Assembly (NCBI GenBank): GCA_030390025.1
Contig: CM059431.1
Location: 136,836,001 to 136,900,000 of the forward strand
Length of the DNA: 64,000 nucleotides
From: Squalus acanthias
Lineage: Eukaryota
Reading direction: 5' to 3'
The first letter of the stretch is position 1. Every line of letters begins with the position of its first letter. Under the pieces are notes generated by a model. It had not been told where the DNA came from. It did not search any database and saw only the letters and a list, made by a program, of their open reading frames with translations. The translations under genes were made by a program, and so were the position numbers. This document shows, piece after piece, positions 464 through 15,400 of the stretch.

Positions 464-718
464 AACTTTACTAAGAATAGAAGAATTACATGTCTAGAGG
501 ACTGTCTCGCAAATAGAGACCAACAAAGAAGAGGTAAAAAGTCAATAAATTGGTCAACCTTTTCAGGCTGGAAAAAGGAAGCAGAAAGGCGTAAGGACCA
601 TAGTATACAAGCCAGTAGATCTGACATTAAAAATAAGAGAAAAGACCTCGTGAGTAAATTGGCTAAACAAAATGAAGTTAGACAAATAGGGACCAAAAGA
701 ATAAAGTTTCCCTCTTAA
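464..718 (+). pseudogene. Possible gag (matrix-region) remnant
   Basis: Stop-to-stop open frame without Met, reading ...RITCLEDCLANRDQQRRGKKSINWSTFSGWKKEAERRK.... Its position upstream of pol fragments and the W-x5-W-x2-EA-x-RR pattern recall fish ERV Gag N-termini. Recognition only. Confidence 0.35.
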
Positions 719-1357
719 TGGAGCAAGCAGCTTCCGCAACACCGACGGAACAGAATTGAAATCTGAAACACAAAGCAAAAAAAAAGAAGGGTTTTGGAAA
801 GCCAGGAAAAGCTGCTGAGAAAAGTTTTACCGGCATGGAAGTTATTAATGTCTGTGCCGAGATAAAAGCTAATATACAAGATTTGTTGAGTGAAAGGAAT
901 CTTAAAAGGAATACTGGGATCTCAGTTGTGTGAAAGTGTGTGTGAAAAGTGTAAAAGATTCCTGATTGTGTGAATGTTTAAGTTTGTTAAGTTACAGTAT
1001 TATTTTGTCCCTGAGAAAAAAAATCTGCCTAAAAAAAAAGGTGTCTGTCATTTTGTTTATGTTTTAGCTCCACCCACTCTTTTGTACAGAGAGCTAAAAG
1101 CTGTTTTGAACTCTTTGAAGACTTGTCTTGAATGATACTCAAGTGTGTTGTTTTAAGTTTGTTAATTGTTTTACAAAAGAGGTATAAACTTCAGTCTTGA
1201 AGTCACAGTTGCCAATGTGCCTGGAAAGAAAATTAATTTGAATGTTTACAAGGTAATTGTTTCTTTGTTAAATGTGACTATGGTTTCTTTTCCAACTGAA
1301 ACTGGTTAGTTTAAAAAAATTGATCTGGATTGAATTGGAATTATTGAGGTTAATTAA

Positions 1358-1583
1358 CCTATTAAAAACCAGACTTTCATTGTGCACGGTGAAATTCTGG
1401 TTGGTGTAAATTTGTGTAGACCGCATTGAATAAGATATTTAATGGTCTGAAACCAAATTTTGAAATATTTACATTCTTGGATACAGAACGGGTTCTGGTC
1501 CATACCATTGGCAGAGGAATCACAAGGGAAATTCGCCTTTACTGTCAGGGATAGACAGGAATTTTATATCAGACTTTGCAGGG
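1358..1583 (+). pseudogene. pol: Eroded reverse transcriptase fragment (motif A region)
   Basis: Manual translation with frameshifts gives PIK(K)PD (1358-1374), ALNK (1423-1434), FTFLD/IQNGFWSIPLAEESQGKFAFTVRDRQ (1468-1558) and RL-x-QG (~1571-1583). These follow the canonical order of retroviral RT motifs. Absent from the ORF track. Confidence 0.75.
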
Positions 1584-3456
1584 AAAGTGCCCCAAGAATT
1601 AGATAAAAAGCTAATTTGAATTACAATTTATGTTAAGCTGGTGTGTAAAAACTGAGAAGAACAACAGAAGAAAAAAGTTTGTTTAACAAAAATGAAGTTT
1701 CAGTCTGAGATTTAACCTTGGAGTCGCGGTTGCTATGGTGAAATCTTCCAAAGCAATTTGATTTGATTTGCTTAAATGTGAAAAACTAATTTATAGTTCT
1801 AGTATTTTGGAAAGACATCTGAAGAAAGGACAATAAGAAATATTATGTAATTTACTAGTTCTGCAAGCATGTGCTATTTTGTTTTGTTTTATCTGTTCTG
1901 TTCGTGCTTAGTTTAAAGTGTGAAAACACAACTGCTTTTTTGGATCGGGAAAGTTTTTTTTAAATTTACGTAAAGTGACGCAATTGCGTGCGCCTGATAA
2001 TGTTTCGCTCCACCTTCTTAAAAAACCTGCAAAGGAGTTAACCCTTTCCACTGACAGCTGATTAAGTTAATCGAGCAACAACTTTAGTATGAAATTTAAA
2101 GATAGTGGACATTATTAAATATAAGTTTCTTAATTTTAAGTTAATATGTCCCCACAGTGACAGAAGGAAAATTATGATTTGATAAATTAACCCCTTGGGC
2201 TCTAAGTAGAGTCACAATGGATTCTCTTCTTTCTTTTGTTATATGGAAGTTACTTTGTAAACTAATTGCAGCACTTCTGTCTCTAATGTTAAAACACTGT
2301 ATAAGCCACCTAGCCTAGAAATCATTTGTTTCTGAAATTGGAAATTGAAGATAAATTGATCGAAATGAAATTGAACATTGACAAAACCTATCAGTTCAAC
2401 AGTACTGCTGTTTGGATTTTGGGATAATGTTGTAATAACAAAATGAACTCAGGCACTATTTATATATTGGGTTACTTTTGGGAAAATAAAAGATCCTCTA
2501 AAATAATGGTAAATAAAAAGAGTTAGTAACTTGGACCTAGTGAGAATGTTTGATCTATGTTTTCAATCTTAAATATTGTACTGGACAGTAAAGTTACTCC
2601 AGGGCTCATGAGTGAGATAGGAATAGTAATTAAAGAGGAAGTGATTGAAGGTGTAAGATAGAAACAGGAGAAATTACACTGCTGAATAGGAATTTAAAAA
2701 AAAAACTTGTTAGTGAAAGTCAGGAAAGTGTAACTATGAATAGTAAATTGATAGCTTTCTCTTGGAGACATTTGTGTCCCTGCCTATAATGAACTTTTTA
2801 AGAAAACTGAATATGAAAGCCTGACCACTATCCAAGACATCGGGACCGTGCAGAGGAAGATGAACAAATACAATCTTTTGATAAGATGCCTGGGAGCCCG
2901 AGAGGGGCACATGTGGCATGATATTGAGATACCTGTATGAGTGTGCAAATGTGATTTGTTACGTATGAAGCGATTACCATCTGGAAATGTATGTTGAATT
3001 TGCACTGAAGAACGGGTCTCAGACATGCTCAGTTACTTGACAACAGCAAGACATGAAATGGTTAATGTGGCTCTGGATAGCGAGACAACCTTTAAAGCAT
3101 TGACACATACTCCATCGAGAAACTATCTAATTAATGAAACAATCAGAATAGAGTTAAACACACTGGTACTGCTTAGAAGGATTGAAATTGAAGTTGAAGT
3201 GGAGAGTTACATGGAATCTGGATTGGGACAATTGAGGGCTAAGGAGAAATCATGTTTAACAAGAATTATCCACAAGATGGATACGAGTAAAAGAGAGATC
3301 TGGAGAATCTTTTAAGTCCATGATTTGTTGATTAGATGTTAAACTGTAATGTTGCTTGAAATTGAAAGACTGAATTTAACTATGACTGTAATAATTGTGT
3401 TTTGTAGGTAACAGAGCGTGGGAAAAACCAGTGCGAATCCAGTATGAGGTGGTTTT

Positions 3457-3922
3457 GGTAGTGCCTCCTGTGTAACTACTACCGCAACTACCATTCTTTA
3501 CGGGTCTAACAGGACCTGTCCCGTTAACCAACACATTTTACATAATATCGAAACCTATGCTCAAGTGAAACTGACAGGATATGAGTTACTTAAGTATGAG
3601 CTGCACAATTATGTGGCATAATTCGGATACGACATTCCCCTGTTGTCTAAAGTTATCAGTGAGCTCATGATGCGACTGAACTCCTCCCTAAAGCATTTTT
3701 ATGTTCTGAAGGAAGACAACTCGAGAATAGATATTGAAATTGACAGCATAGGGGATAACTCACACTGGTGGGATAATTGGGCTTAATATATCAGCACACA
3801 CTTAGATTTGTATTATTTCACACGCTCTGGTAGTTCTCCAACTGGTAATGATAGTGTATTTGATATATGTAACCTATGTAGTAAGATACACAAGTCAATT
3901 GGGTACTCATGCCCATGACTAA
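3457..3922 (+). pseudogene. Second, non-gamma-type envelope glycoprotein C-terminal remnant (heptad region, HWWD, transmembrane segment)
   Basis: Frame reads GSASCVTTTATTILYGSNRTCPV...YVA*FGYDIPLLSKVISELMMRLNSSLKHFYVLKEDNSRIDIEIDSIGDNSHWWD. After a frameshift it continues GLNISAHT*ICIISHALVVLQLVMIVYLIYVTYVV (hydrophobic), then a short tail ending at TAA 3920-3922. Confidence 0.5.
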
Positions 3923-4451
3923 CCAGCACTAACAAATTGAGCACACCGAAAGAGAAGATCCGAAGCAATGTAGAGGAGACCCCAGGCGGGGTAACATCAG
4001 GAAAGATAGAAGAAACAGAGGATATTTAAAAACTAACCAGGCGGGGCAGAATTGGAACACCGGAATGGACTATTAGAAGGGAGAAATCTTCAAGACTCCC
4101 TACTAACTAATGCCCAAGTTGAGAGAGAGCAATAAGAACTAGCTAGATTAGTCAAGAGCCGATTGTGAGAAGTCAATAAGGGTTATTTCCTTCTCAAAGA
4201 AGGAAATTGTAAGAAATAGCTGTTAGATTCAAAGATGGGTCTTAATTCTTAGAACAGAAACTGACAACATGCAGCCAGGAATAGATAGCAGAAATGCCAG
4301 CAAGGTCGAATATCAAGCATCAAAAGACAAATAGAAGTGATAAGGGAATCGTAAAATGCAAAACAACACAGGGTGGGGGGGGGGGGGGGGGTAATAGTCA
4401 GTGAAAGAAAGGGAGTAAAAAAACAAATTTAAATTTTGAAGGACTTACACA

Positions 4452-5192
4452 ATGGTAATCATAGATATGTTTTCAAGATGGGTTGAAGCTTTTCCATGTA
4501 AAAAGAATGATGCTGTAACAGTTGCAAAGTGTTTGTTAAAAGAAATCATACCAAGGTTTGGAATACCTATGCAACTTTCATGTGACAACGGATCACATTT
4601 TACTGGAATGATCAGAAAGGAACTATGTAAGGCTTTGCAGATTAATCAGCATTTCCACTGCAGTTATCATCCGCAATCTGCGGGACTAGTAGAAAGATAT
4701 AACGGAATGCTGAAGAATAAACTTTCTAAACTTTGCAATGAAACTGGACTAAAATGGGTTGAACTGTTACCCTTAGCATTGATGGTAATGCGAGAAGCAA
4801 CTAACAGGACAACTGGACTGTTGCCACATGAAATTTTAATGGGACGACCCCAAAGGCTGCCATTCTGAGCACCCTTTACGGTTAAACATATGGACATTCA
4901 TAAAACGGATGAAAATATGCTACACTATTGCATTGCATTAACTAGATGTATTTCCAGCTTTCACTAACAGGTAAAGGAAGCTCAAACGGAACCAGCCGAT
5001 GGAAAGTGCCATAACTTGGAACCAGGAGATGACGTCTATGTAAAGGTCTATAAGAGGAAGAACGGTCTGCAGCCACGCTTTGAAGGGCCATATCAAGTAC
5101 TCTTGACAACAAATACAGCTGTAAAGGTCAAGGAAAGACGTACTTGGATCCACGCATCCCATTGCAAGAAAGTATCAGATAAGGACTGTTGA
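4452..5192 (+). pseudogene. pol: Retroviral integrase core and C-terminal domain (class I type), 5'-truncated, two in-frame stops
   Basis: VIIDMFSRWVEAFP, SCDNGSHF and HPQSAGLVERYNGMLK match the rve core. Reading through TGA 4866 and a later TAA gives [10 protein letters not shown]...[32 protein letters not shown], ending at TGA 5190-5192. Confidence 0.92.
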
Positions 5193-5217
5193 ATTTGAAT
5201 TTGAAAAGACTTAAACA

Positions 5218-6683
5218 ATGAAGCTGTTATTTACGTTTTACCTACTAATCAGACTGATATGTATAGCCTGCCAAGGGAGAGGAAAAGAACCCCGAAAGAA
5301 ACGAGAATTACATATGAACACCTTTTTGTATATGTCATATAAGTATGCCAAAAAAAGTGGGATAAACGCCTGTTGGATATGTAGCCATATTCCTACCCAT
5401 GTGAAAAGAGGAATACCTCTGCGACCGATACCCTTCAACCTCACAGATATGGCAGAATGGATAATTAATAAAAATCATCGAAACAGAAAGATACCACCCT
5501 ATCCACCTTCGGGAAAGAATGGGAACAAAAGTGGTCTAGCCTAAGAAACGAGTTTAAGGGGGGAGGATATTCGTTAGAAAATTTTAAGGGATGGTACAAG
5601 CCGACGTATGATTATACGAAAGAACCTCCTTTTCTAGCCCTTACCAATACATCGGGAAAGGGCCGACCAATCGGGGATATATGCTGGGAACGCGTACTAG
5701 GACAGACTAAAGGGAACAGAGTTAATATGGGGAAAAGTCGTTGCATACAAAAGTTTATTACGTACAAGGCAGGAAGTTCCATGGAAAGCTGGTGGTTCAA
5801 TACTACCAGTTTGATGAATTTGACTAATAACAGACCATGGAAAGGGACTAAACGATTGAATACTGACAATCAGATGGGTTTTACCGTTTTCCGCACCAAC
5901 GTGAACCCTGATCAACCGGGACAGATAGTGACAGCCTATAACGGGACGTACTTCATATGCGGTCACAGCGCATACCCTTGGCTACCAGAGAATTGGGCAG
6001 GATCATGCTATTTGGGTTATGTAGTACCATACATACACCACATAAAGGAATTGAAAGACCACCATAAGCATAGCTGTAAGAAAAGAGAACTCCCCACATG
6101 GAAGATATTAGTTGGAGCTATGTTTCCCCCTGCTGGAATAGCGTTTACTTCCCAAGAAATACTGTTACTATCAGCATTAATTGAGGGAGTAGCTAATGAC
6201 ACGGTTAAATCTCTGAGGGAGGTAAGCACCGAAATGGTAGCCCTGAGAACCGTCGCCCTACAAAATTGAATGGCACTAGATTACCTACTAGCTCCACAGG
6301 GAGGTATATGTGCCATGATCGGAGCAGAATGCTGCACATATATCCCAGATAGCTCTGAAAATATAACCAACTTAGCGGACCATATTCAGAAACAGGTTGC
6401 CCTGCTCCATCAATCCAGGACCAAAGGCGGCTGGGCTGATTGGATATTAGGGGGATGGTTAGGATCAATGGGACAAGTATTATTGCATGGATTAGTAGTA
6501 ATAATAGCCGCAATTGTATGTATTATTTTGGTTGTCACAATGATTAAGTGTTGTTGTAATAGGTTAGGCAAGGTAGTCATACCTGAAGTAAGTGTAATGA
6601 TACAGAAAGAAATAAATGACGAAGAAGAAAAGTATGGCCCCTTCGGGGAGGAACTGAGGCGATTGAATAAAATACAATTTTGA
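5218..6683 (+). pseudogene. env: Retroviral env (gamma-type SU/TM), disrupted
   Basis: Signal peptide MKLLFTFYLLIRLICIACQG, CWIC (CXXC), cleavage site CKKR/EL, hydrophobic fusion peptide, ISD ALQN*MALDYLLA (TGA 6267-6269 in place of Arg), CAMIGAECC (CX6CC), and TM LVVIIAAIVCIILVVTMI. Also a stop/frameshift near 5544. Confidence 0.93.
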
Positions 6684-6889
6684 GGATTAGACAACCTAGA
6701 CAAAATATACATATAGATATTTATACATTTTTGCATGCTCCCCACTTTCGGTAAACATATTCTTCCACCCACATGGGATCTGCAGGCTAGGGAAAGAGAG
6801 AGGACTCCTTTCAACTGCCGGTGACGTCGACCTTGTATACCACTTGGTCCGCACTCTGGAGGCTCACGTAGAAGCACTTGTGCTTAGGA

Positions 6890-7052
6890 GAACCCCACAG
6901 GTCAGGCATAAACTGTGTGGGTCATGAATCAGCTGTAGTTCCTTTGGAGAACCCCACAGGTTAGGTATAAACTGTGTGGGTCATGAATCAGTCCTCCTCT
7001 ATAAGCTGCAGTTCGAACCCCACAGGTTAGGCATAAACTGTGTGGGCCATGA
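6890..7052 (+). repeat. Three ~38-bp direct repeats with an internal hairpin in the ERV 3' UTR
   Basis: GAACCCCACAGGT(C/T)AGG(C/T)ATAAACTGTGTGGG(T/C)CATGA at 6890, 6949 and 7015. CACAG...CTGTG can pair within each copy. Confidence 0.9.
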
Positions 7053-7412
7053 CTTAGAACTCCTCTGTGAGCTGCTGTACCCTATCTCCTTAGAGGGTGT
7101 ATAGCGACACCTGAGCTGCAGGCTAGTAAAAGCTGCAGGAAAAGTTAGAGAACAGCAGACTAATGAACCACAAAAGTACGCCAGAGTCACCAAAACACAA
7201 CTAAAACCCCTGCAAGAACATACGCCCAAACACCGAGAATAGACAGAGAAGAAGGACGATCTTAAATAAGGTCAGCCATAAATACAGGTATAATCCCGAG
7301 GATGGTTAAAACAGAAAAGAAGTTGGCATCCCTGGCCAAAATCCAAATATGGTACAGGAACCGACAAGAAAGACCGAAAGAGTTAAATTGAGCTATTTTG
7401 TCCTAGAAGGAC

Positions 7413-7426
7413 AAAAAAGGGGGGAA
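7413..7426 (+). other. Polypurine tract (plus-strand primer)
   Basis: AAAAAAGGGGGGAA immediately before the LTR-initial TG. Confidence 0.85.
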
Positions 7427-7982
7427 TGTGGAAGTGCAGTTTTTGTCTCGGGCAAAATGGCTTACTTGAATTTAAACTAATATAAAATGGCCGACTCTGT
7501 CTTGTGTGGAAAAGGGAAAAATCCATTGTTATGTTCTTTTATCAAAATAACTTTAAAGTTCTAGACTATGCTTTTAGCAAAGTCTGCCTGCACAAAAGAA
7601 AACAGGCTTAAATCGAGATAACCAAGGGCTAGTAAAGTAAACAAACAGGGCCTTGGCCTTGGGAAGAAAAAGTACAGACAGATAGATTCCATTTTATAGG
7701 GATTAGTTAGTCTCACTGTAAGGCATTTCTTACGTGTTTTTTCTAATTGTTAATTTAGCTTACCTTAAACAACATGTCATGTGATATTATAATGTGTAAG
7801 AATACGCCATTTTCTGTGATTCGGCAGTCTGTCATCATAGCTAATTGGGCTATGGTTGCAGTCTCCTTGCAAGTAAAATATAATAAAAAGCCTTCTTTGA
7901 AGATATTGTCTACAAGAGTCTTTAATCGGAAGTCGAAACTTCGACACACCCAACCAGTCAATGTCTTTCTTTATCCTCCACA
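7427..7982 (+). repeat. 3' LTR (~556 bp)
   Basis: Begins TGTGGAAG right after the PPT and ends CCTCCACA (imperfect terminal inverted repeat, TG...CA). TATA-like TATTATAA at ~7785 and AATAAA at 7882-7887. Confidence 0.8.
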
Positions 7983-8024
7983 CGAGCAAATAGTTCCAAT
8001 CATATTGACCCACCCTGTTGAAAC

Positions 8025-8175
8025 ACTTTTGCGGATTTCAAGGTAATTGTCAGAAGAACCAAAGGCGACATCAGGAAACAACTTTTGCACAGCGAGTTGT
8101 TGCTATCGGGAATGCAATACTTGAAAGGGTGGTGGGGGCAGATTTAACAGTAAATTGCAAAAGGAAATTGGTAAA
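8025..8175 (+). mobile_element. Old CR1-type LINE 3' ORF2 fragment
   Basis: Degenerate match to the CR1 ORF2 C-terminus seen at 16800-16960 (AGAACCAAAGG..ACATCAGGAAA..CACAGCGAGT..GGAATGC). Confidence 0.5.
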
Positions 8176-8479
8176 CGGCGCTGACTGATGCTGTAAAATC
8201 CGTCCCACGGGATGTTAGGAAACAAGGAGAGTTTATTCTGTCCCGTTACAAGTTTTAAATGTTCCTGCACTCCTAATTTGTAGGAGAGGGCAGTCTCTCG
8301 CTTTATTTCCCAATAAACTGGTTTTACAACTATTTCAGGTATAATTTGCGCGACAGTTTTTGCGGAGATTACAGAAGTTCCCTCCCGAACAGTGCCTGAC
8401 ACATTGAGGGAGGATTATCGCAAATTCCAGGCTTCATTGCCCGCATTTACCCGTAAGCTGATGCCACGATAAGGGATAG

Positions 8480-8870: not shown

Positions 8871-9149
8871 TGGGCTAGGGACAGAGCTCAGTCATAAACA
8901 ACAGTAAAAATGTTACTTGAACGATAAAAAAAGGATAAGCGCAGAGTTCGGGTCAACACAGGAATACTCCAGATGAACTGAATACTAAAATAATTAAAGT
9001 AGTTACAGCGGAAGTGACAAATTAGGAACCTGTTTAATTAAACGGTGTAAGAAAGACAGCATCGGGTCTAAAGGTCAGCTTAGGTTCTCTTTCCCAAATA
9101 AGAGTTTTATATACTAACGTAGGGGTATAAGAAAAAAATGGAGTGAATT

Positions 9150-10100
9150 GGAAGCTGAAAAGTGTCAAATGGATCCGAAATTTCTGGTGATACAAAGTGA
9201 GGTGGGAAAGTACGTTGTGAGGCAGATGCAAAGATGATGCAAAGGGATATAGACAGGTTATGTGAGTGGGAAAGAACATGGCAGATAGAATCTAACGTGA
9301 AGAAACGTGAATTATCCACTTTGGTAGGAAACATAGATACAGAGATTATTATTTAAATGGTGAGAGATCGGTTAATGTTGGGACTCAGAGTGAGCGCTGG
9401 GTGTCCTTGTACATGCGTCACTGAAGTTAGCATGCAGGTGCAGCAAGCAATTAGGAAAACAAATAGTACGTTAGCCTTTATTAAAAAAGGATTTGAGTAT
9501 CAGAGTAAATAAGTGTTATTGCAATTATATAAGACCTTAGTGAGACCACTCCTGGAGTATTGTGTACAGTTTTGGTCTCCTTACCTGAGGAAAGATATAT
9601 TTGCCTAAGAGGGAGTGCAATGAATGTCTAGCAGACGGATTCCTTGGATAGGGGATAGTCGTATGCGGAGAGATTGAGGAGTCTAGGCCTATAATCCATA
9701 GCATTTAGAAGAATGAGATGTGGTCTGATTGAAAATTATAAAATAACGACAGGGCTTGAGAGGGTAGATGTTGGGAGGATGATTCCCCTGGCTGCGGAGT
9801 CTAGAACCTGGGATCACAGTCTCAGAATAACGTGTCGGCCATTTCGGACTCAGATGAGGAGAAATTTCTTTACTCAGATGTTTGTGAATCTTTGGGATTC
9901 TCTACACCAGATGGCTGTGGATGCTCAGTCGTTGATTATATTCAAGACAGAGCTCAATAGATTTCTGGATATTAACAGAATCAATGGTTATGGGGATAAT
10001 GCAGGAAATTGGAGTTGAGGTCAAAATCAATCATGAACTTATTGAATGGTGGAGCAGGCTCGAGGGGCCGAATGACTCCTGCTCCCATTTCTTATGTTCT
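9150..10100 (+). mobile_element. Degenerate CR1-type LINE 3' end (RT C-terminus, 3' UTR, tail)
   Basis: Decayed xDDTK motif at ~9185, GTGAGACCACTCCTGGAGTATTGTGTACAGTTTTGGTCTCC ([14 protein letters not shown]), ORF 9713-10018 MRRNFFTQ, and 3' UTR GGAGCAGGCTCGAGGGGCCGAATG followed by a TTCTTATGTTCTT tail. Confidence 0.85.
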
Positions 10101-10109
10101 TAAATACAG

Positions 10110-11843
10110 CTTACATGGTATTACTTGGACATTCTGTAAGCGGGTCACGATCGGGAGTTAAATATTCCAGATTATAAATTCTGTAGAAAGGATGGGGAAA
10201 CTGTCACAGGAGGAGGGGTAGCCTTAATGGTTAAAGGTATATTACAGCATTAGTGAGAGAGGATAAAGGGAAAGTCATAACCTAAGTTTTTGTGTTTAGA
10301 ATTGATAGTATGCGAGTACTTAAATCTTTAATGGGAGTTGCCTACAATCTTCCGGCTAGCTACAAAGAATTGACAGAATTGATTCATTCCGAGATTAGAG
10401 AGGATTGTAGCAAAATCAGGGTTGTTTTAAATGGAGACTTTAATTGCCATATGGAATGGTAAGAGCAGACTAGCTCCAGTCGGAAAGGTGGTGCTTTCAA
10501 GGTAGTTTCTGGAGCAGTATCTTCTGGAACCAACAAGGAGAATAATAGAGTTAGGAATGAGTAATGGCCCAGTCTTCGTTAATTAAGTAATAGTAAGGCA
10601 ACTGCTATTTAACTGTGATCATAGTATGATAGAATGAAATGTAAGTTTTGAAAAGTAGAAACACAACACATTTACTAAGGTTCTAGATTTTGGCAAGGCT
10701 AACTTTAACGGGAAGAGACAGAGACTGACGACAGCAAGCTGGTCAAAATCGTTATCGGATAAGACTGCAGCTGAACAGTGGGAGGGGCTGAAAACTAGTT
10801 TGGCTTCATACAGGATCAGTATATACCGATAAAGGGCAAAATCTGTCATTACCAATTCAAACAGCCATGGTTGACATAGATTTGAGAGGTGGCATAAAAC
10901 TACAGGAAATAGCAGACAAAAGTGCAAAGAATATTTTAGATCCAGTGGACTGGAATAAACAGAAAGAACAACAATGGAAGCCAGAAAATGATAGTAAAAG
11001 CTGCAAAAAGGAACACGAAAAGAAACTTGCTAGGGTTATCAACATAAAAAAAATCATTTTTACAATTACATGAGCAGAAAAAAATATAGTCAAGGGTAAT
11101 GAGCTCAATTTAGAAACAGATGTGGCTAATATTGAAAATGCAAATAAGAAAATGTCAGACTTGTTGAATAATTAATGTGTGTCAGTCTTCACAGTAGGGG
11201 AAGGGGATAATATGCCTTAACATCCCAGGGAAACTAGTAATGAATCAAGGACCGGAACGCACTAAAGTTAACGTAAACAAGTAAACATTAACAGTAAAAA
11301 TAATGGCAGAAAAGACTGAGAAATCCTTAGGAGCTGATGGTTTCCACCCCACAGCTTTAAAGAAAGTAGATGAGTAAATTGCAGTTGCTTTAGCTAGAAT
11401 CTTCCAAAGCAATTTCGATTCAGGAATTATCCCTTTAGATTGGAAAGTTACAAATGTAACTCTACCATTTAAGAGAGGTGTGTGAGAGAAACCAGGAAAT
11501 TATAGACCCTTTAGTCTAATATCTATTGTAGGGAAGTTATTGGAATCTATAATTAAGGACAGAGTGACTTAGCACTTAGACAATATTGAGCTGGTTAGAG
11601 AGAGCCAACGTGGTTTTGTAAATGGTAGGTCACGTCTAATGAAGCTATTTGATTTTGCTGAAGTGGTAACTAAAGTGTTAGAGAGGGGAATGTACATGGA
11701 TTTATCTTACGTGGAACTCCAGAAGACATTCGATAAGTTTCCACATAAGTGATTGTTCACTCAAATTAAAGTTCAGGGAATTGAAGGCAAATTATTGACA
11801 TGGTTACGATACTGCTTAGGCAGCAGAAGAGCGTAGAGATAAA
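10110..11843 (+). mobile_element. Old, heavily mutated CR1-type LINE ORF2 (endonuclease to RT N-terminal part)
   Basis: Residual GDFN (ATGGAGACTTTAAT at 10432), DWKVTNVT, KPGNYRPFSLISIVGKLLESII (11490-11553) and QRGFVNGRS motifs. Cut off at 11843 by the Harbinger left end. Confidence 0.8.
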
Positions 11844-12177
11844 GGTGGAGAAATTCGGTACTGCCCCGTTTGAGCGCTAATTTTTGAGTTCGTGAAATAT
11901 TAGCGCCAGGCGCTGATGTGTCTAAGCTTCCCCTAAGTTTGCTGCTAGTGCTCCTGGAAAGAACTGGAGCGCTAAATCAAGCGCTAATGACCTACGTAGG
12001 GCGCTACAGGGAAGCTACCAGCAAAGCGATAAAGAATTTCAGCTGCTATGCAATCGGGAATGATCCTTCACATTGGCCCCATCCATCTCTTAAGAGCAGG
12101 TTGCTTCATTGTGCAGATCCTCATTAGCAGCATTGCTGGCTGTGAAGGCGAAATGCAAACAACCGAATCCCCTGATC

Positions 12178-12423
12178 ATGATGGGTGACCCCACTCCCAG
12201 GGAGAGAGCTCCTCTTTTTTCAAACGAGGCACTGGAGGCATTGGTCGCGGGTGTGGAGCTGAGGAGGGCAGTGCTGTTCCCGGACACTGGAAGGAGGCCA
12301 TTGCCCCAGGACTTCAGGGCAATGTGCAGGGAAGTGGCCCAGGAGGTCTCGGCCAGTTGTGTGGTCCAACGCAGCCTGACACAGTGCCGAAAGTAATTCA
12401 ACGACTTCACTCGGGTGGTTAAT
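12178..12423 (+). pseudogene. Harbinger Myb/SANT-like DNA-binding protein, exon 1
   Basis: MMGDPTPRERAPLFSNEALEALVAGVELRRAVLFP...EVAQEVSASCVVQRSLTQCRK*FNDFTRVVN, followed by a GTGAGT donor at 12424. Trihelix Myb/SANT (NAIF1/MSANTD-like) pattern with one premature stop. Confidence 0.8.
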
Positions 12424-12459
12424 GTGAGTACTTGCTTCAACAGGTCCTACGTAACAGCA

Positions 12460-15400
12460 TGCGAATGGAGCTGCGAATGGATACATACTGGAGCATTCGC
12501 GATGCTGAGCACATCGTGTATAAAACGTTCAGGAAGTTGGTCACACTGCAGGTAAAGGCTGCACAAGCAGGAAGGGAATGGGTGACCACCAGGCAGAAAA
12601 GTAGGTCAAGGCAGGTAGTGCAGGGTTCCCCTGTGGCCATCTCCTTTTCAAACACATATACCATTTTGGATATTGTTGAGGGGGCTGGCAGCAGTAGCCA
12701 ACTTCCTGGCACCATGGGTGGTCCTTCTGCACAGGACGGGCGGAAGCAAAGCGGGAGAGCTATAGTGAAAGTGGATTCCATTCTAAGTGGAATAGATAGG
12801 CGTTTCTGCGGCCGCAAACGAGACTCCGGGATGGAATGTTGCCTCCCTGGTGCAAGGGTCAAGGATGACTCGGAGCGGCTGCAGGGCATTCTATAGGGGG
12901 AAGGTGAACAGCCAGTTGTCGTGGTGCATATAGGTATCAACGATATAGCTAAAATACGGGATGAGGTCCTAAAAGCTGAATCTAGGGAGTTAGGAGGTAA
13001 ATAAAAAAAATAGGACATCAAAGGTAGTAATGTCAGGATTGCTACCAGTGCCACGTGCACCAGAGGAGAAATAGAAGGATATTTCAGATGAATAAGTGGC
13101 TAGAGAAATGGTGAAAGGGGGAGGAATTCAAATACCTGCGACATTGGAACTGGTTCTGGGGGTGGTGGGACAAGTACAAACTAGACGGTTTTCACCTGGG
13201 CGGGACCGGAACCGATGTCCTAGGGAGAGTGTTTTCTAGTGCTGTTGGTGAGGGTTTAAACTAAAATGGAAGGGGTTGGAAACCTGTGCAGGGAGACAGA
13301 GGAAAGGGAAGCAAGAATAGAAAAAAAAGACAGGAAGGAGAAAAGCAAAAGTCGAAGGTAGAGTAATCAACGGTGGAAATCAAACAGGGCCACAGTAAAT
13401 AAAAGATCTCAAAAAGGACTAGGAGTATTAAAAAATCAAGCCTGAAGGCTTTGTGTCTTAATGCAAGGAACATTCTTAATAAGGTGGATGAATTAGCTGC
13501 GGAAATAGATGTAAACGGATATGATATAATTGGGATTACGGAGACATGGCTCCAGGATGATCAAGTCTGGGTATTCAACATCCAGGGGTATTCAATATTC
13601 AGGAAAGACAGGAAAAAAGGAAAAGAAGGTGAGGTAACATTGCTGGTTAAAGAGCAGATTAACAAAATTGTAAGGAAGGATATTAGCTCTGATTATGTGG
13701 AATCTGTATGGGCAGACCTGAGAAATACGAAGGGGCAGAAAACGTTAGTGGGACTTGTATACAGACCACCAAACAGTACAGCTGATGTTGGGGATGGCAT
13801 TAAACGGGAAATTAGAGACGTGTGCATTAAGGGCACAGCAGTTATCATGGGTGACTTTAATCTACATATAGATTGGGCTAAACAAATTAGTAACACGATT
13901 GTGGTGGAGGAATTCCTAGAGTGTATACGGGATTGTTTCCTGGACCTATATGTCGAGGAACCAACTAGAGATCAGGCCATCTTAGACTGGGTATTATGTA
14001 ATGAGAAAGGATTAATTAGCAATCTTGTTGTGCGAGGCACCTTGGGGAGGAGCAATCATAATATGATAGAATTCTTCATTAAAATGGAGAGTGAAGTAGT
14101 TGACTCAGAAACTGGGGTCCTGAATTTAAATAACGGAAACTACGATGGTATGAGGCACGCGTTGGCTATGATGGATTGGGAAACGTTACTTAAAGGGTTG
14201 ACGGTGGATAGGCAATGGCAAACATTTAAAGATCGCTTGGATGAACTACAGAATCTGTTCAGCCCTGTTTGGCATAAAAATAAAACAAAAAAGGTGACTC
14301 AACCATGGCTAACAAGGGAAATTAGGGATAGCATATGATCCAAGGCGAGTACATATAATCTGGCCAGAAAAAGCAGTGAACCTGAGGATTGGGAGCAGTT
14401 TAGGATTCAGCAAAGGAGGACAAAGGGATTAATTAAGAGGGGGAAAATAGATTTTGAGAGTAAGCTTCCAGGGAACATAAAAACTGACTGTAAAAGCTTC
14501 TAAAAGCTTCTAGATATGTGAAGAGAAAATGATTGGTGATGTCAAGCGTAGGTCCCTTGCAGTCAGAATAAGGGGATTTTATAATGGAAAAAAAAATGGC
14601 AGAACAATTAAATACATACTTTGGTTCTGTCTTCACAAATGAGAACACATATAACCTTCCCAGCGATGTCGGAGAACATAGGATCTAATGAGAGGGAGGA
14701 ATTGAATGAAATCTGTATTTGTAGGGAAATGGAGTTAGGGAAATTGACGGGATTGATGGCCGATAAATCCCCAGCGCCTGCTAATCTACATTCTAGGGTA
14801 TTTAAGGAAGTGGCCCTAGAAATAGTAGATGCATTGCTGGTCATCTTCCAAAATTCTATAGACTCTGGCACAGTTCCCATGGATTGGAGGATAGCTAATG
14901 TAACCGCACGATTTAAAAAAGGTGGTAGAGAGAAAACGGGGAATTATACACCGGTAAGTCTGACATCGGTAGTGCGGAAAATGTTAGAGTCAATTATAAA
15001 AGATGTAATAGCTGAGCACTTGGAAAACAGTGACAGGATCGGACAAAGTCGACATGGATTTACAAAAGGTAAATCATGATTGACTAATTTACTGGAATTT
15101 TTTGAGGATGTAACTGTTAGAATAGATAAGGGAGAACTAGTGGATGTGGTGTATTTGGACATTCAGAAGGCTTTCGATTAGGTCCCGCAGAAGAGATAAG
15201 CGTGCAAAGATAAAGCACTCGGGATTGGGGTTAAGTTACTGTCTTGGATAGAGAACCGTTTGGCAGACAGGAAGCAAAGAGTTGGAATAAGCGGGTCTTT
15301 TTCCGAGTGGCAGGAAGTGACTAGTGGGGTACTACAGGGATCGGTGCTCGGACCCCAGCTATTCATAATATATATAAATGTTCTAGACGAGGGAACTAGT

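Follow-up and report, generated by a model that had tools for sequence, protein, structure and literature searches.

A chimeric endogenous retrovirus in Squalus acanthias

We analyzed a stretch of 64,000 nucleotides from Squalus acanthias (NCBI GenBank assembly GCA_030390025.1, contig CM059431.1, positions 136,836,001 to 136,900,000 of the forward strand; hereafter the window), at the start of which lies an endogenous retrovirus (ERV) put together from two retroviral lineages. The retroviral features described below are on the plus strand and are given in window coordinates. A first-pass annotation, made from the sequence without database searches, had placed a mosaic retrovirus at 1358–6683, either as a recombinant non-autonomous provirus or as two adjacent decayed elements. 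That span turned out to be too short. Comparing 10 kb of upstream DNA, we located a 520-bp long terminal repeat (LTR) 269–788 nt upstream of the first base of the window. It is identical at 502 of 520 positions (96.5%) to the 3′ LTR at 7427–7946 (520 bp), for which self-comparison of the window finds no partner inside it. The element thus runs from 788 nt before the window to 7946, a length of 8.7 kb. Both LTRs have TG...CA termini, and the target-site duplication CACC (4 bp) stands on either side of the element (7947–7950, and the same four bases ahead of the 5′ LTR). An 18-nt primer-binding site (PBS), TGGAGGTCCCACCGAGAT, starts 5 nt past the 5′ LTR, and the polypurine tract (PPT), AAAAAAGGGGGGAA (7405–7426), abuts the 3′ LTR; a PPT and LTR downstream of env had already been recognized in the first-pass annotation. 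The element therefore has the matching LTRs, the duplication, the PBS and the PPT by which an LTR retroelement is defined, and its two halves are one integrated unit, not neighboring elements.

The ends, integrase and gamma-type env derive from family K

Searching the genome with an integrase N-terminus, a part that is absent from the chimeric family, we found an autonomous family, K. It is a class I (gamma/epsilon-like) family, placed as such in comparisons made without epsilonretrovirus references, and has many open pol frames of 1190 amino acids (aa), in about 29 of 150 scored matches; one member, K_C9, carries gag, the 1190-aa pol and env. Motif A of its reverse transcriptase (RT) reads VIDLCSAFFSIPI (DLCSAFF type). 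The K Pol scores 513 bits against RT-RNase H chains of the PDB that we take to be those of murine leukemia virus (MLV) or the related XMRV, versus 179 bits against protease-RT (PR-RT) chains that we take to be foamy viral, since the PDB table gives molecule names only.

The 5′ LTR and PBS are continued by a K-type leader (1–481), 72–75% identical to K_C22 and K_C9, and by two scraps of a K-family gag whose middle is absent (482–754). The N-terminal scrap (482–687) corresponds to the gag start of K_C9 (1083–1287) at 92%, and the C-terminal one (680–754) to the gag end (2178–2252) at 87%. On the other side of the element, 4453–7442 is 94.3% identical to K_C9 over 3,000 nt, including a tract homologous to the PPT. 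K_C22 has the same PBS letters as the chimeric family and an identical LTR end, and the LTR of K_C9 is like the chimeric LTR at both ends and different between them. The 5′-truncated class I integrase reported in the first-pass annotation is real. It occupies 4440–5192, begins at about residue 945 of the 1190-aa Pol of K, and retains part of the core (Pfam rve, E 2.5e-14, 4440–4868) and an MLV-type C-terminal domain (MLVIN_C, E 1.6e-16, 4968–5192), with in-frame stops between 4866 and 4967 and 92.7% amino acid identity to K_C9. The env that follows (5215–6683) is gamma-type, as had been proposed (Pfam TLV_coat, E 8.4e-7), and its translation shows a signal peptide, CWIC, a basic cleavage site (KKR), an immunosuppressive-domain-like LQN-x-ALDYLL, a CX6CC motif (CAMIGAECC) and a membrane anchor. 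It is, however, near-full-length and not intact, being broken by one frameshift (5472–5541) and one stop (6267–6269). LTRs, PBS, gag scraps, integrase remnant, gamma-type env and PPT all derive from K.

Between env and PPT, self-comparison reveals three tandem repeats of ~60 nt in the 3′ untranslated region (6890–7078), with units 73–86% alike, which a K relative shares. Elsewhere in the genome, a K-like integrase-env unit that is truncated and contains a LINE-like RT insert forms a head-to-tail array with a 6,145-bp period (G000:C16:25679435-25690007). Adjacent units are 99.8% identical and further env matches lie at C16:25603074, 25687080 and 25693225; this array is a tandem amplification of an ERV fragment, not a product of retrotransposition.

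The middle of the element is a block from a second lineage

The 3.6 kb between these parts (760–4372) come from a second ERV lineage, which we call A. They have no match to K; at 75–87% nucleotide identity, they run collinear with E41_C15, another LTR element, in three parts that lie apart in it. The 5′ part of the block (760–1792) follows the 5′ internal region of E41_C15 (6902–8226; 75–87%) and also E40_C10 (6056–6813). Within the 3′ part (1807–4066), 1807–2285 corresponds to E41 12283–12752 at 87% and 3406–4066 to E41 14416–15046 at 86%, both in the E41 3′ region, and an older relative, F1, is collinear with 2089–4066 over its positions 9115–12942. The block ends in an LTR scrap (4181–4372) covering approximately positions 45–310 of an 890-bp LTR, 81–83% identical to both LTRs of E41_C15. 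A filler of a G run followed by A-rich sequence (4373–4452) separates it from the K homology, which resumes at 4453; about 17 G stand in a row at 4374–4390, at the joint of the captured LTR scrap and the integrase. Another locus compared, F3, shows no similarity to the chimeric element. Neither the stretch 1807–3447, including its 105-residue frame at 2998–3315, has any similarity to the env profile described below, to Pfam or to our panel of proteins, nor did the same kind of search match the frames 464–718 and 760–933. The first-pass annotation had marked 2780–3320 for comparison with retroviral proteins, and nothing came of it.

Two coding remnants can be recognized in the block. The first is a scrap of RT fingers and palm (1420–1600), as the first-pass annotation had read it, in two frames: frame 1 (1420–1482) reads TALNKIFNGLKPNFEIFTFLD and frame 2 (1484–1600), past a frameshift at ~1481, begins QNGFWSIPLAEESQGKFAFTV. 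Aligned with the intact Pols of the genome, it gives TALNK, a gap of 14 residues (a deletion), and then IFNGLKPNFEIFTFLD-x-QNGFWSIPLAEESQGKFAFTV, with NGFW at motif A. On its own the scrap is weakly recognizable (Pfam RVT_1, E 0.03; best PDB matches, E 0.06), and it matches the Pol of a family of the same genome, Y, at E 1.7e-10 (tblastn). At 60 aligned positions it is identical to Y at 38, to P72 at 36, to P59 at 35, to F4 at 25 and to K at 20. Quick maximum-likelihood trees unite it with Y, P72 and P59, as well as with two public proteins, in one clade (Shimodaira–Hasegawa-like approximate likelihood-ratio test, SH-aLRT, 97 in a tree of 116 rows and 92 in one of 37), with K in the other major group, alongside MLV and reticuloendotheliosis virus. 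These trees were built from a 250-residue RT window by quick searches with no outgroup and without foamy virus or lokiretrovirus rows; the scrap fills less than a quarter of the columns, and rows that failed the motif pattern, had an incomplete window or bore stops were dropped (P64, E41 and E19 among them). On the trees, together with the homology of the flanking DNA to E41 and the absence of a K match, we regard the scrap as coming from outside K. We had considered that the scrap might belong to the lineage of the integrase, as gamma-env proviruses of this genome also have NGFW, and dropped this candidate, the RT of K being of DLCSAFF type. The claim of two lineages and two env types in tandem on one strand is therefore borne out, and the scrap does not group with the class I clade of the integrase.

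The second remnant is the C-terminal tail of another env (3448–3918), in a frame interrupted by TAA stops at 3619–3621 and 3784–3786 and shifted near 3777–3785. Its alignment partners are the final ~150 residues of intact env frames found elsewhere in the genome, F4 (815 aa), F7 (649) and F6 (489), with which it has in common the blocks CVTT...CP, FGY-x-IP-x-L, KHFY-x-LE, WW(D/N) and RI-x-SH; the remnant takes in the last Cys pair, the membrane-proximal helix region and WWD. A profile built from four intact F4-type envs, none of them from the chimeric family, matches 3514–3777 at its positions 669–754 of 818 (independent E-value, iE, 2.8e-8) and 3785–3874 at positions 757–786 (iE 0.002). The match identifies a real glycoprotein tail; upstream of 3448 the 3′ part of the block matches neither this profile nor Pfam. 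The first-pass annotation had described a glycoprotein C-terminus with a transmembrane segment at 3457–3922, of which the glycoprotein stands, while the membrane anchor, which comes after W-W-D/N in the intact relatives, is decayed in the window. F4-type env is unrelated to gamma-type env, having neither CX6CC nor a TLV_coat match. A provirus of the P72 type (G000:C26:36740529-36750500, minus strand) combines an NGFW Pol, whose PR-RT part is 72% identical to that of Y, with an F4-type env, so one lineage can have supplied both the RT scrap and the env tail, as the first-pass annotation had supposed.

The public proteins closest to the retroviral proteins of the window are from sharks, skates and sawsharks. 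For F4-type env, database searches returned 3 and 10 public relatives, all named hosts being cartilaginous fishes, and the ESM Atlas gave one chordate cluster at 0.84; the profile gave a chance match only against PDB sequences. An AlphaFold model from a 10-row alignment reached a pLDDT (predicted local distance difference test) of 33.5. This low-confidence model, with motif scans, gives a layout in which a signal peptide is followed by RQRR at 359–362, by long helices that extend to ~465, by a Cys-rich stretch and then by a second helix (713–747) and an anchor (762–791). It is this layout that may suggest a likeness to F-type fusion subunits. An env of this type is carried by a provirus on the minus strand at G000:C7:125447240-125463239, with 1,145-bp LTRs that are 100% identical; its gag (620 aa), pol (1481 aa) and env (815 aa) are open.

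The captured block is most probably not a foamy virus or lokiretrovirus relic

The first-pass annotation had assigned the upstream fragments to a spuma/lokiretrovirus-like lineage, in large part because NGFW was thought typical of foamy viruses. As a marker, the motif fails. LDI(A/Q/S)NGFW is found in every non-K Pol that we sampled from the genome, including those of P59 and P59b, two complete proviruses (LTR, gag, pol, env) with a gamma-type env (TLV_coat 9.9e-16 for P59). Of the 120 public proteins most closely related to the P59 RT, 16 have NGFW, 62 DAFF and 12 SAFF, and at least 4 of the 16 NGFW Pols also bear the MLV-type integrase C-terminal domain (MLVIN_C). NGFW at RT motif A is thus normal in ERV polymerases of shark, fish and amphibians, and is not diagnostic; in fish-type genomes it marks neither foamy nor lokiretroviral origin, and a false lead is removed.

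We therefore weighed whether the RT and env pieces could be relics of a foamy-like or lokiretrovirus-like virus that recombined with a class I element, and consider this improbable. The scrap's PDB matches at E < 1 (0.06–0.8) are indeed solely foamy PR-RT chains, which it matches by way of the NGFW stretch, and F4 Pol scores almost as high against foamy PR-RT (219 bits) as against MLV-type RT (240 bits). In the trees the neighbors of F4 Pol are proteins of coelacanth and frog, which belong to host groups reported for lokiretroviruses in the portion of that work considered here (PMC7947760). According to motif scans and the low-confidence model, the fusion subunit of F4-type env is long, lacks CX6CC and contains two helical regions that are separated by ~250 residues. 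Yet the scrap groups with Y, P72 and P59 and not with F4 (25 of 60 positions), and the Pol of P59 scores higher against MLV/XMRV-type RT-RNase H than against foamy PR-RT chains (363 versus 213 bits). The named viruses nearest to the P59 RT are reticuloendotheliosis virus (40%) and MLV (38%), and the 120 relatives listed include no foamy virus. Foamy_virus_ENV and Gag_spuma match no open reading frame of the element and no F4-type env; with ten F4-type envs, neither PF00523 nor Foamy_virus_ENV was matched at E up to 10. Nor was any match to PF00523 seen when the whole genome was searched, although the first look of that search was stricter, so that absence is not implied. The public homologs of F4-type env with a named host are from cartilaginous fishes only, and in the portion of the lokiretrovirus paper considered here no cartilaginous fish is listed among the hosts (PMC7947760). 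Pol scores, public relatives and env profiles thus all speak against the label, and the element is most probably not a foamy virus or lokiretrovirus relic. The NGFW group lies farther from MLV than K does and its F4 branch is nearly equidistant from MLV-type and foamy RT, which suggests a deep lineage of its own.

The chimera is a family with many copies, most of which have lost part of env

Most copies of the chimera lack 646 bp of env. Among 18 copies that were not chosen for their env, 17 are without 5913–6559 and one is without 5561–6618, and the whole env is kept in the copy of the window and in two others. In one of these two, env is open for 455 residues and the integrase frame for 250; in the other, env is open for 406. 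Their LTR pairs are 99.4% and 99.8% identical. Open frames in such young copies could be taken to mean that a full-env subfamily was retained because the gamma-type env serves the host or other ERVs, for instance by supplying env or by blocking a receptor. We regard this as very unlikely, since open frames may merely reflect youth, the env of the window copy is broken twice, and the env middle is gone from all 18 unselected copies.

The arrangement recurs between LTRs at many other sites of the genome, which is what the first-pass annotation had proposed to check. Elsewhere, 33 loci cover all 2,581 nt of 1350–3930 at 94–97% identity, and the mosaic is present in all 32 other copies that we inspected. 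In six of six copies taken with their flanks the order of parts from LTR to LTR is the same and the flanks are unrelated. Perfect 4-bp duplications, each different, surround five of the seven complete copies, that of the window included. A 91-nt probe across the K-to-A joint (754/760) was found at 95–100% identity in 40 of 40 scored loci, out of 302 first-look candidates. A second 91-nt probe, inside the env tail, gave 1,115 candidates, and 12 of 12 loci drawn from its matches were the same chimera, two of them with other 5′ deletions. The LTR pairs of six other copies are 98.1–99.8% identical, as against 96.5% in the window copy; the activity of the family was therefore spread over time, and the window copy is among the older ones. 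The recombinant non-autonomous provirus of the first-pass annotation is thereby sustained, with its matching LTRs, 4-bp duplication and many independent copies bearing the same joints. The alternative, two unrelated decayed proviruses lying side by side or a misjoin in the assembly, might have explained the foreign LTR scrap between the halves (4181–4372), which a nested or tandem pair would leave, but has practically no chance of being right, because outer matching LTRs and a 4-bp duplication enclose both halves and the same joints recur in the 40 scored loci and the 32 inspected copies with different flanks and duplications.

Logan contigs over 600–5000 are short repeat fragments, none of which bridges a joint with 31 letters on each side. 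Contigs of sequencing runs labeled as two other organisms hold stretches of the captured block at 95–99% identity, and the chimeric family or its donor may accordingly be common to related species.

Formation and mobilization

Searching with the Gag, Pol and Env proteins of nine families by tblastn, we recovered from the element solely the RT scrap, the env tail, the integrase, the gamma-type env and one 23-residue gag-like match, and found no further gag and no protease, RNase H or integrase N-terminus. What it does share with the autonomous K are the cis-acting ends: the 3-kb stretch, the PBS and the LTR end. We consider it highly probable that this is an 8.7-kb, LTR-bounded chimeric ERV family devoid of gag, protease, RT and the front part of the integrase, which was likely copied in trans by the proteins of K. 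With the cis signals of K (LTR, PBS, leader with gag start, PPT) retained, the Gag-Pol of K could package, reverse-transcribe and integrate the chimera.

The chimera would have arisen once. K and A RNAs packaged together might have produced it through two template switches, or else it came from a nested insertion followed by two trimming deletions. Both routes would be possible, given that the A piece ends in the front part of its LTR, the presumed U3, which stands at the 3′ end of genomic RNA. The env-deleted form would then have spread within the germ line.

Some observations weigh against this account. Mobilization in trans by K is suggested by shared cis signals and copy number, and our copy numbers are lower bounds only. 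No donor A element at ≥95% and no intermediate form was found in the genome. As the LTR of K_C9 differs in U3, the exact autonomous partner may be an unsampled subfamily of K. Finally, in an approximately unbiased (AU) test, a tree forcing the RT scrap together with K is disfavored and yet unrejected (log-likelihood difference 17.9, p 0.082).

A possible reciprocal chimera, and close polymerases with different env classes

E41 (G000:C15:54877410-54896051, minus strand), the element with which the captured block is collinear, is itself LTR-bounded (890-bp LTRs, 99.2% identical) and of mixed descent. Its 5′ part is NGFW-type, with the start of an RT fused to a K-like integrase (83% at the amino acid level to that of the window). 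Past the integrase come an open 484-aa gamma-type env, two F4-type env tails, one of them in an open 168-aa frame, and its own LTR. E41 is thus the mirror case of the window chimera, which implies that blocks were exchanged between the lineages at least twice. It is possible, though we hold it rather doubtful, that the chimeric family and E41 are reciprocal chimeras of clades whose RTs are ~38% identical, and so fossils of envelope-class swaps, and that F4-type env could be the branch in cartilaginous fishes of the F-like env that lokiretroviruses have. In that case, the window chimera would be a K backbone with a piece of the NGFW lineage, and the NGFW-type backbone of E41 would carry a K-like integrase-gamma-env block inserted upstream of the leftover, older F4-type env tails. 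The swapping of large blocks, on more than one occasion in this genome, between lineages as distant as K and the NGFW group is relevant to how envelope class changes in retroviruses.

Family Y is very young, with dozens of loci whose PR-RT protein is 100% identical and whose pol is open for 1187 aa. One copy (G000:C1:187229098-187243097) has gag and pol and no env, and in another member (C8) gag, protease and a truncated RT are joined straight to an open 472-aa gamma-type env. While the provirus with a PR-RT 72% identical to that of Y has an F4-type env, two relatives at 58–59% have a gamma-type env; close polymerases (P72 versus P59) go with different env classes. Just upstream of a further ERV lies a satellite-like array of several kb (G000:C3817:549414-555000), one frame of which gives repeats of the GEMSGEWGG type.

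Comparison with known systems

The lineage of the RT scrap resembles foamy viruses in NGFW at motif A and in the best PDB matches of the short scrap. It differs from them in that the complete Pols like the scrap score higher against MLV-type RT and in the lack of any foamy Env or Gag signal; NGFW, moreover, is common to many non-foamy fish and amphibian ERVs. As in lokiretroviruses, the env is unrelated to gamma-type env, with a furin-like site and, in the predicted layout, widely spaced helical regions. Unlike them, F4-type env has no similarity to PF00523, which the lokiretroviral Env matches at E 2.2e-7 (Wang and Han 2020; PMC7947760, considered in part). Family K is comparable to the class I (gamma/epsilon-like) fish ERV clades "Jin" and "Mu", to judge from the portion of their description considered here (Xu et al. 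2018; PMC6001957), in its MLV-type RT-RNase H, its MLVIN_C domain, its gamma-type env with CX6CC and its 4-bp duplications. The same portion describes a widespread clade related to snakehead retrovirus, "Huo" (PMC6001957), with respect to which our trees only part the NGFW group from that of K, MLV and reticuloendotheliosis virus.

Defective proviruses of recombinant origin that exploit an intact relative are already well known, and no new mechanism is needed for the chimera described here. The ETn elements of mouse are non-autonomous ERVs mobilized by an autonomous relative, MusD. Like ETn/MusD, the chimeric family has LTRs, PBS, leader and 3′ end in common with an autonomous family, a foreign coding middle and many copies with target-site duplications. 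It differs in that the replacement is recognizably a second retrovirus, with an RT scrap, the tail of another env and an LTR scrap, in that a minority of its copies keep a near-whole env, and in that mobilization in trans is here proposed from sequence. The family also provides a well-bounded example in which the env-deleted form became the common one, a dominance that matches the pattern of env-less "superspreaders" reportedly described by Magiorkinis and colleagues in 2012.

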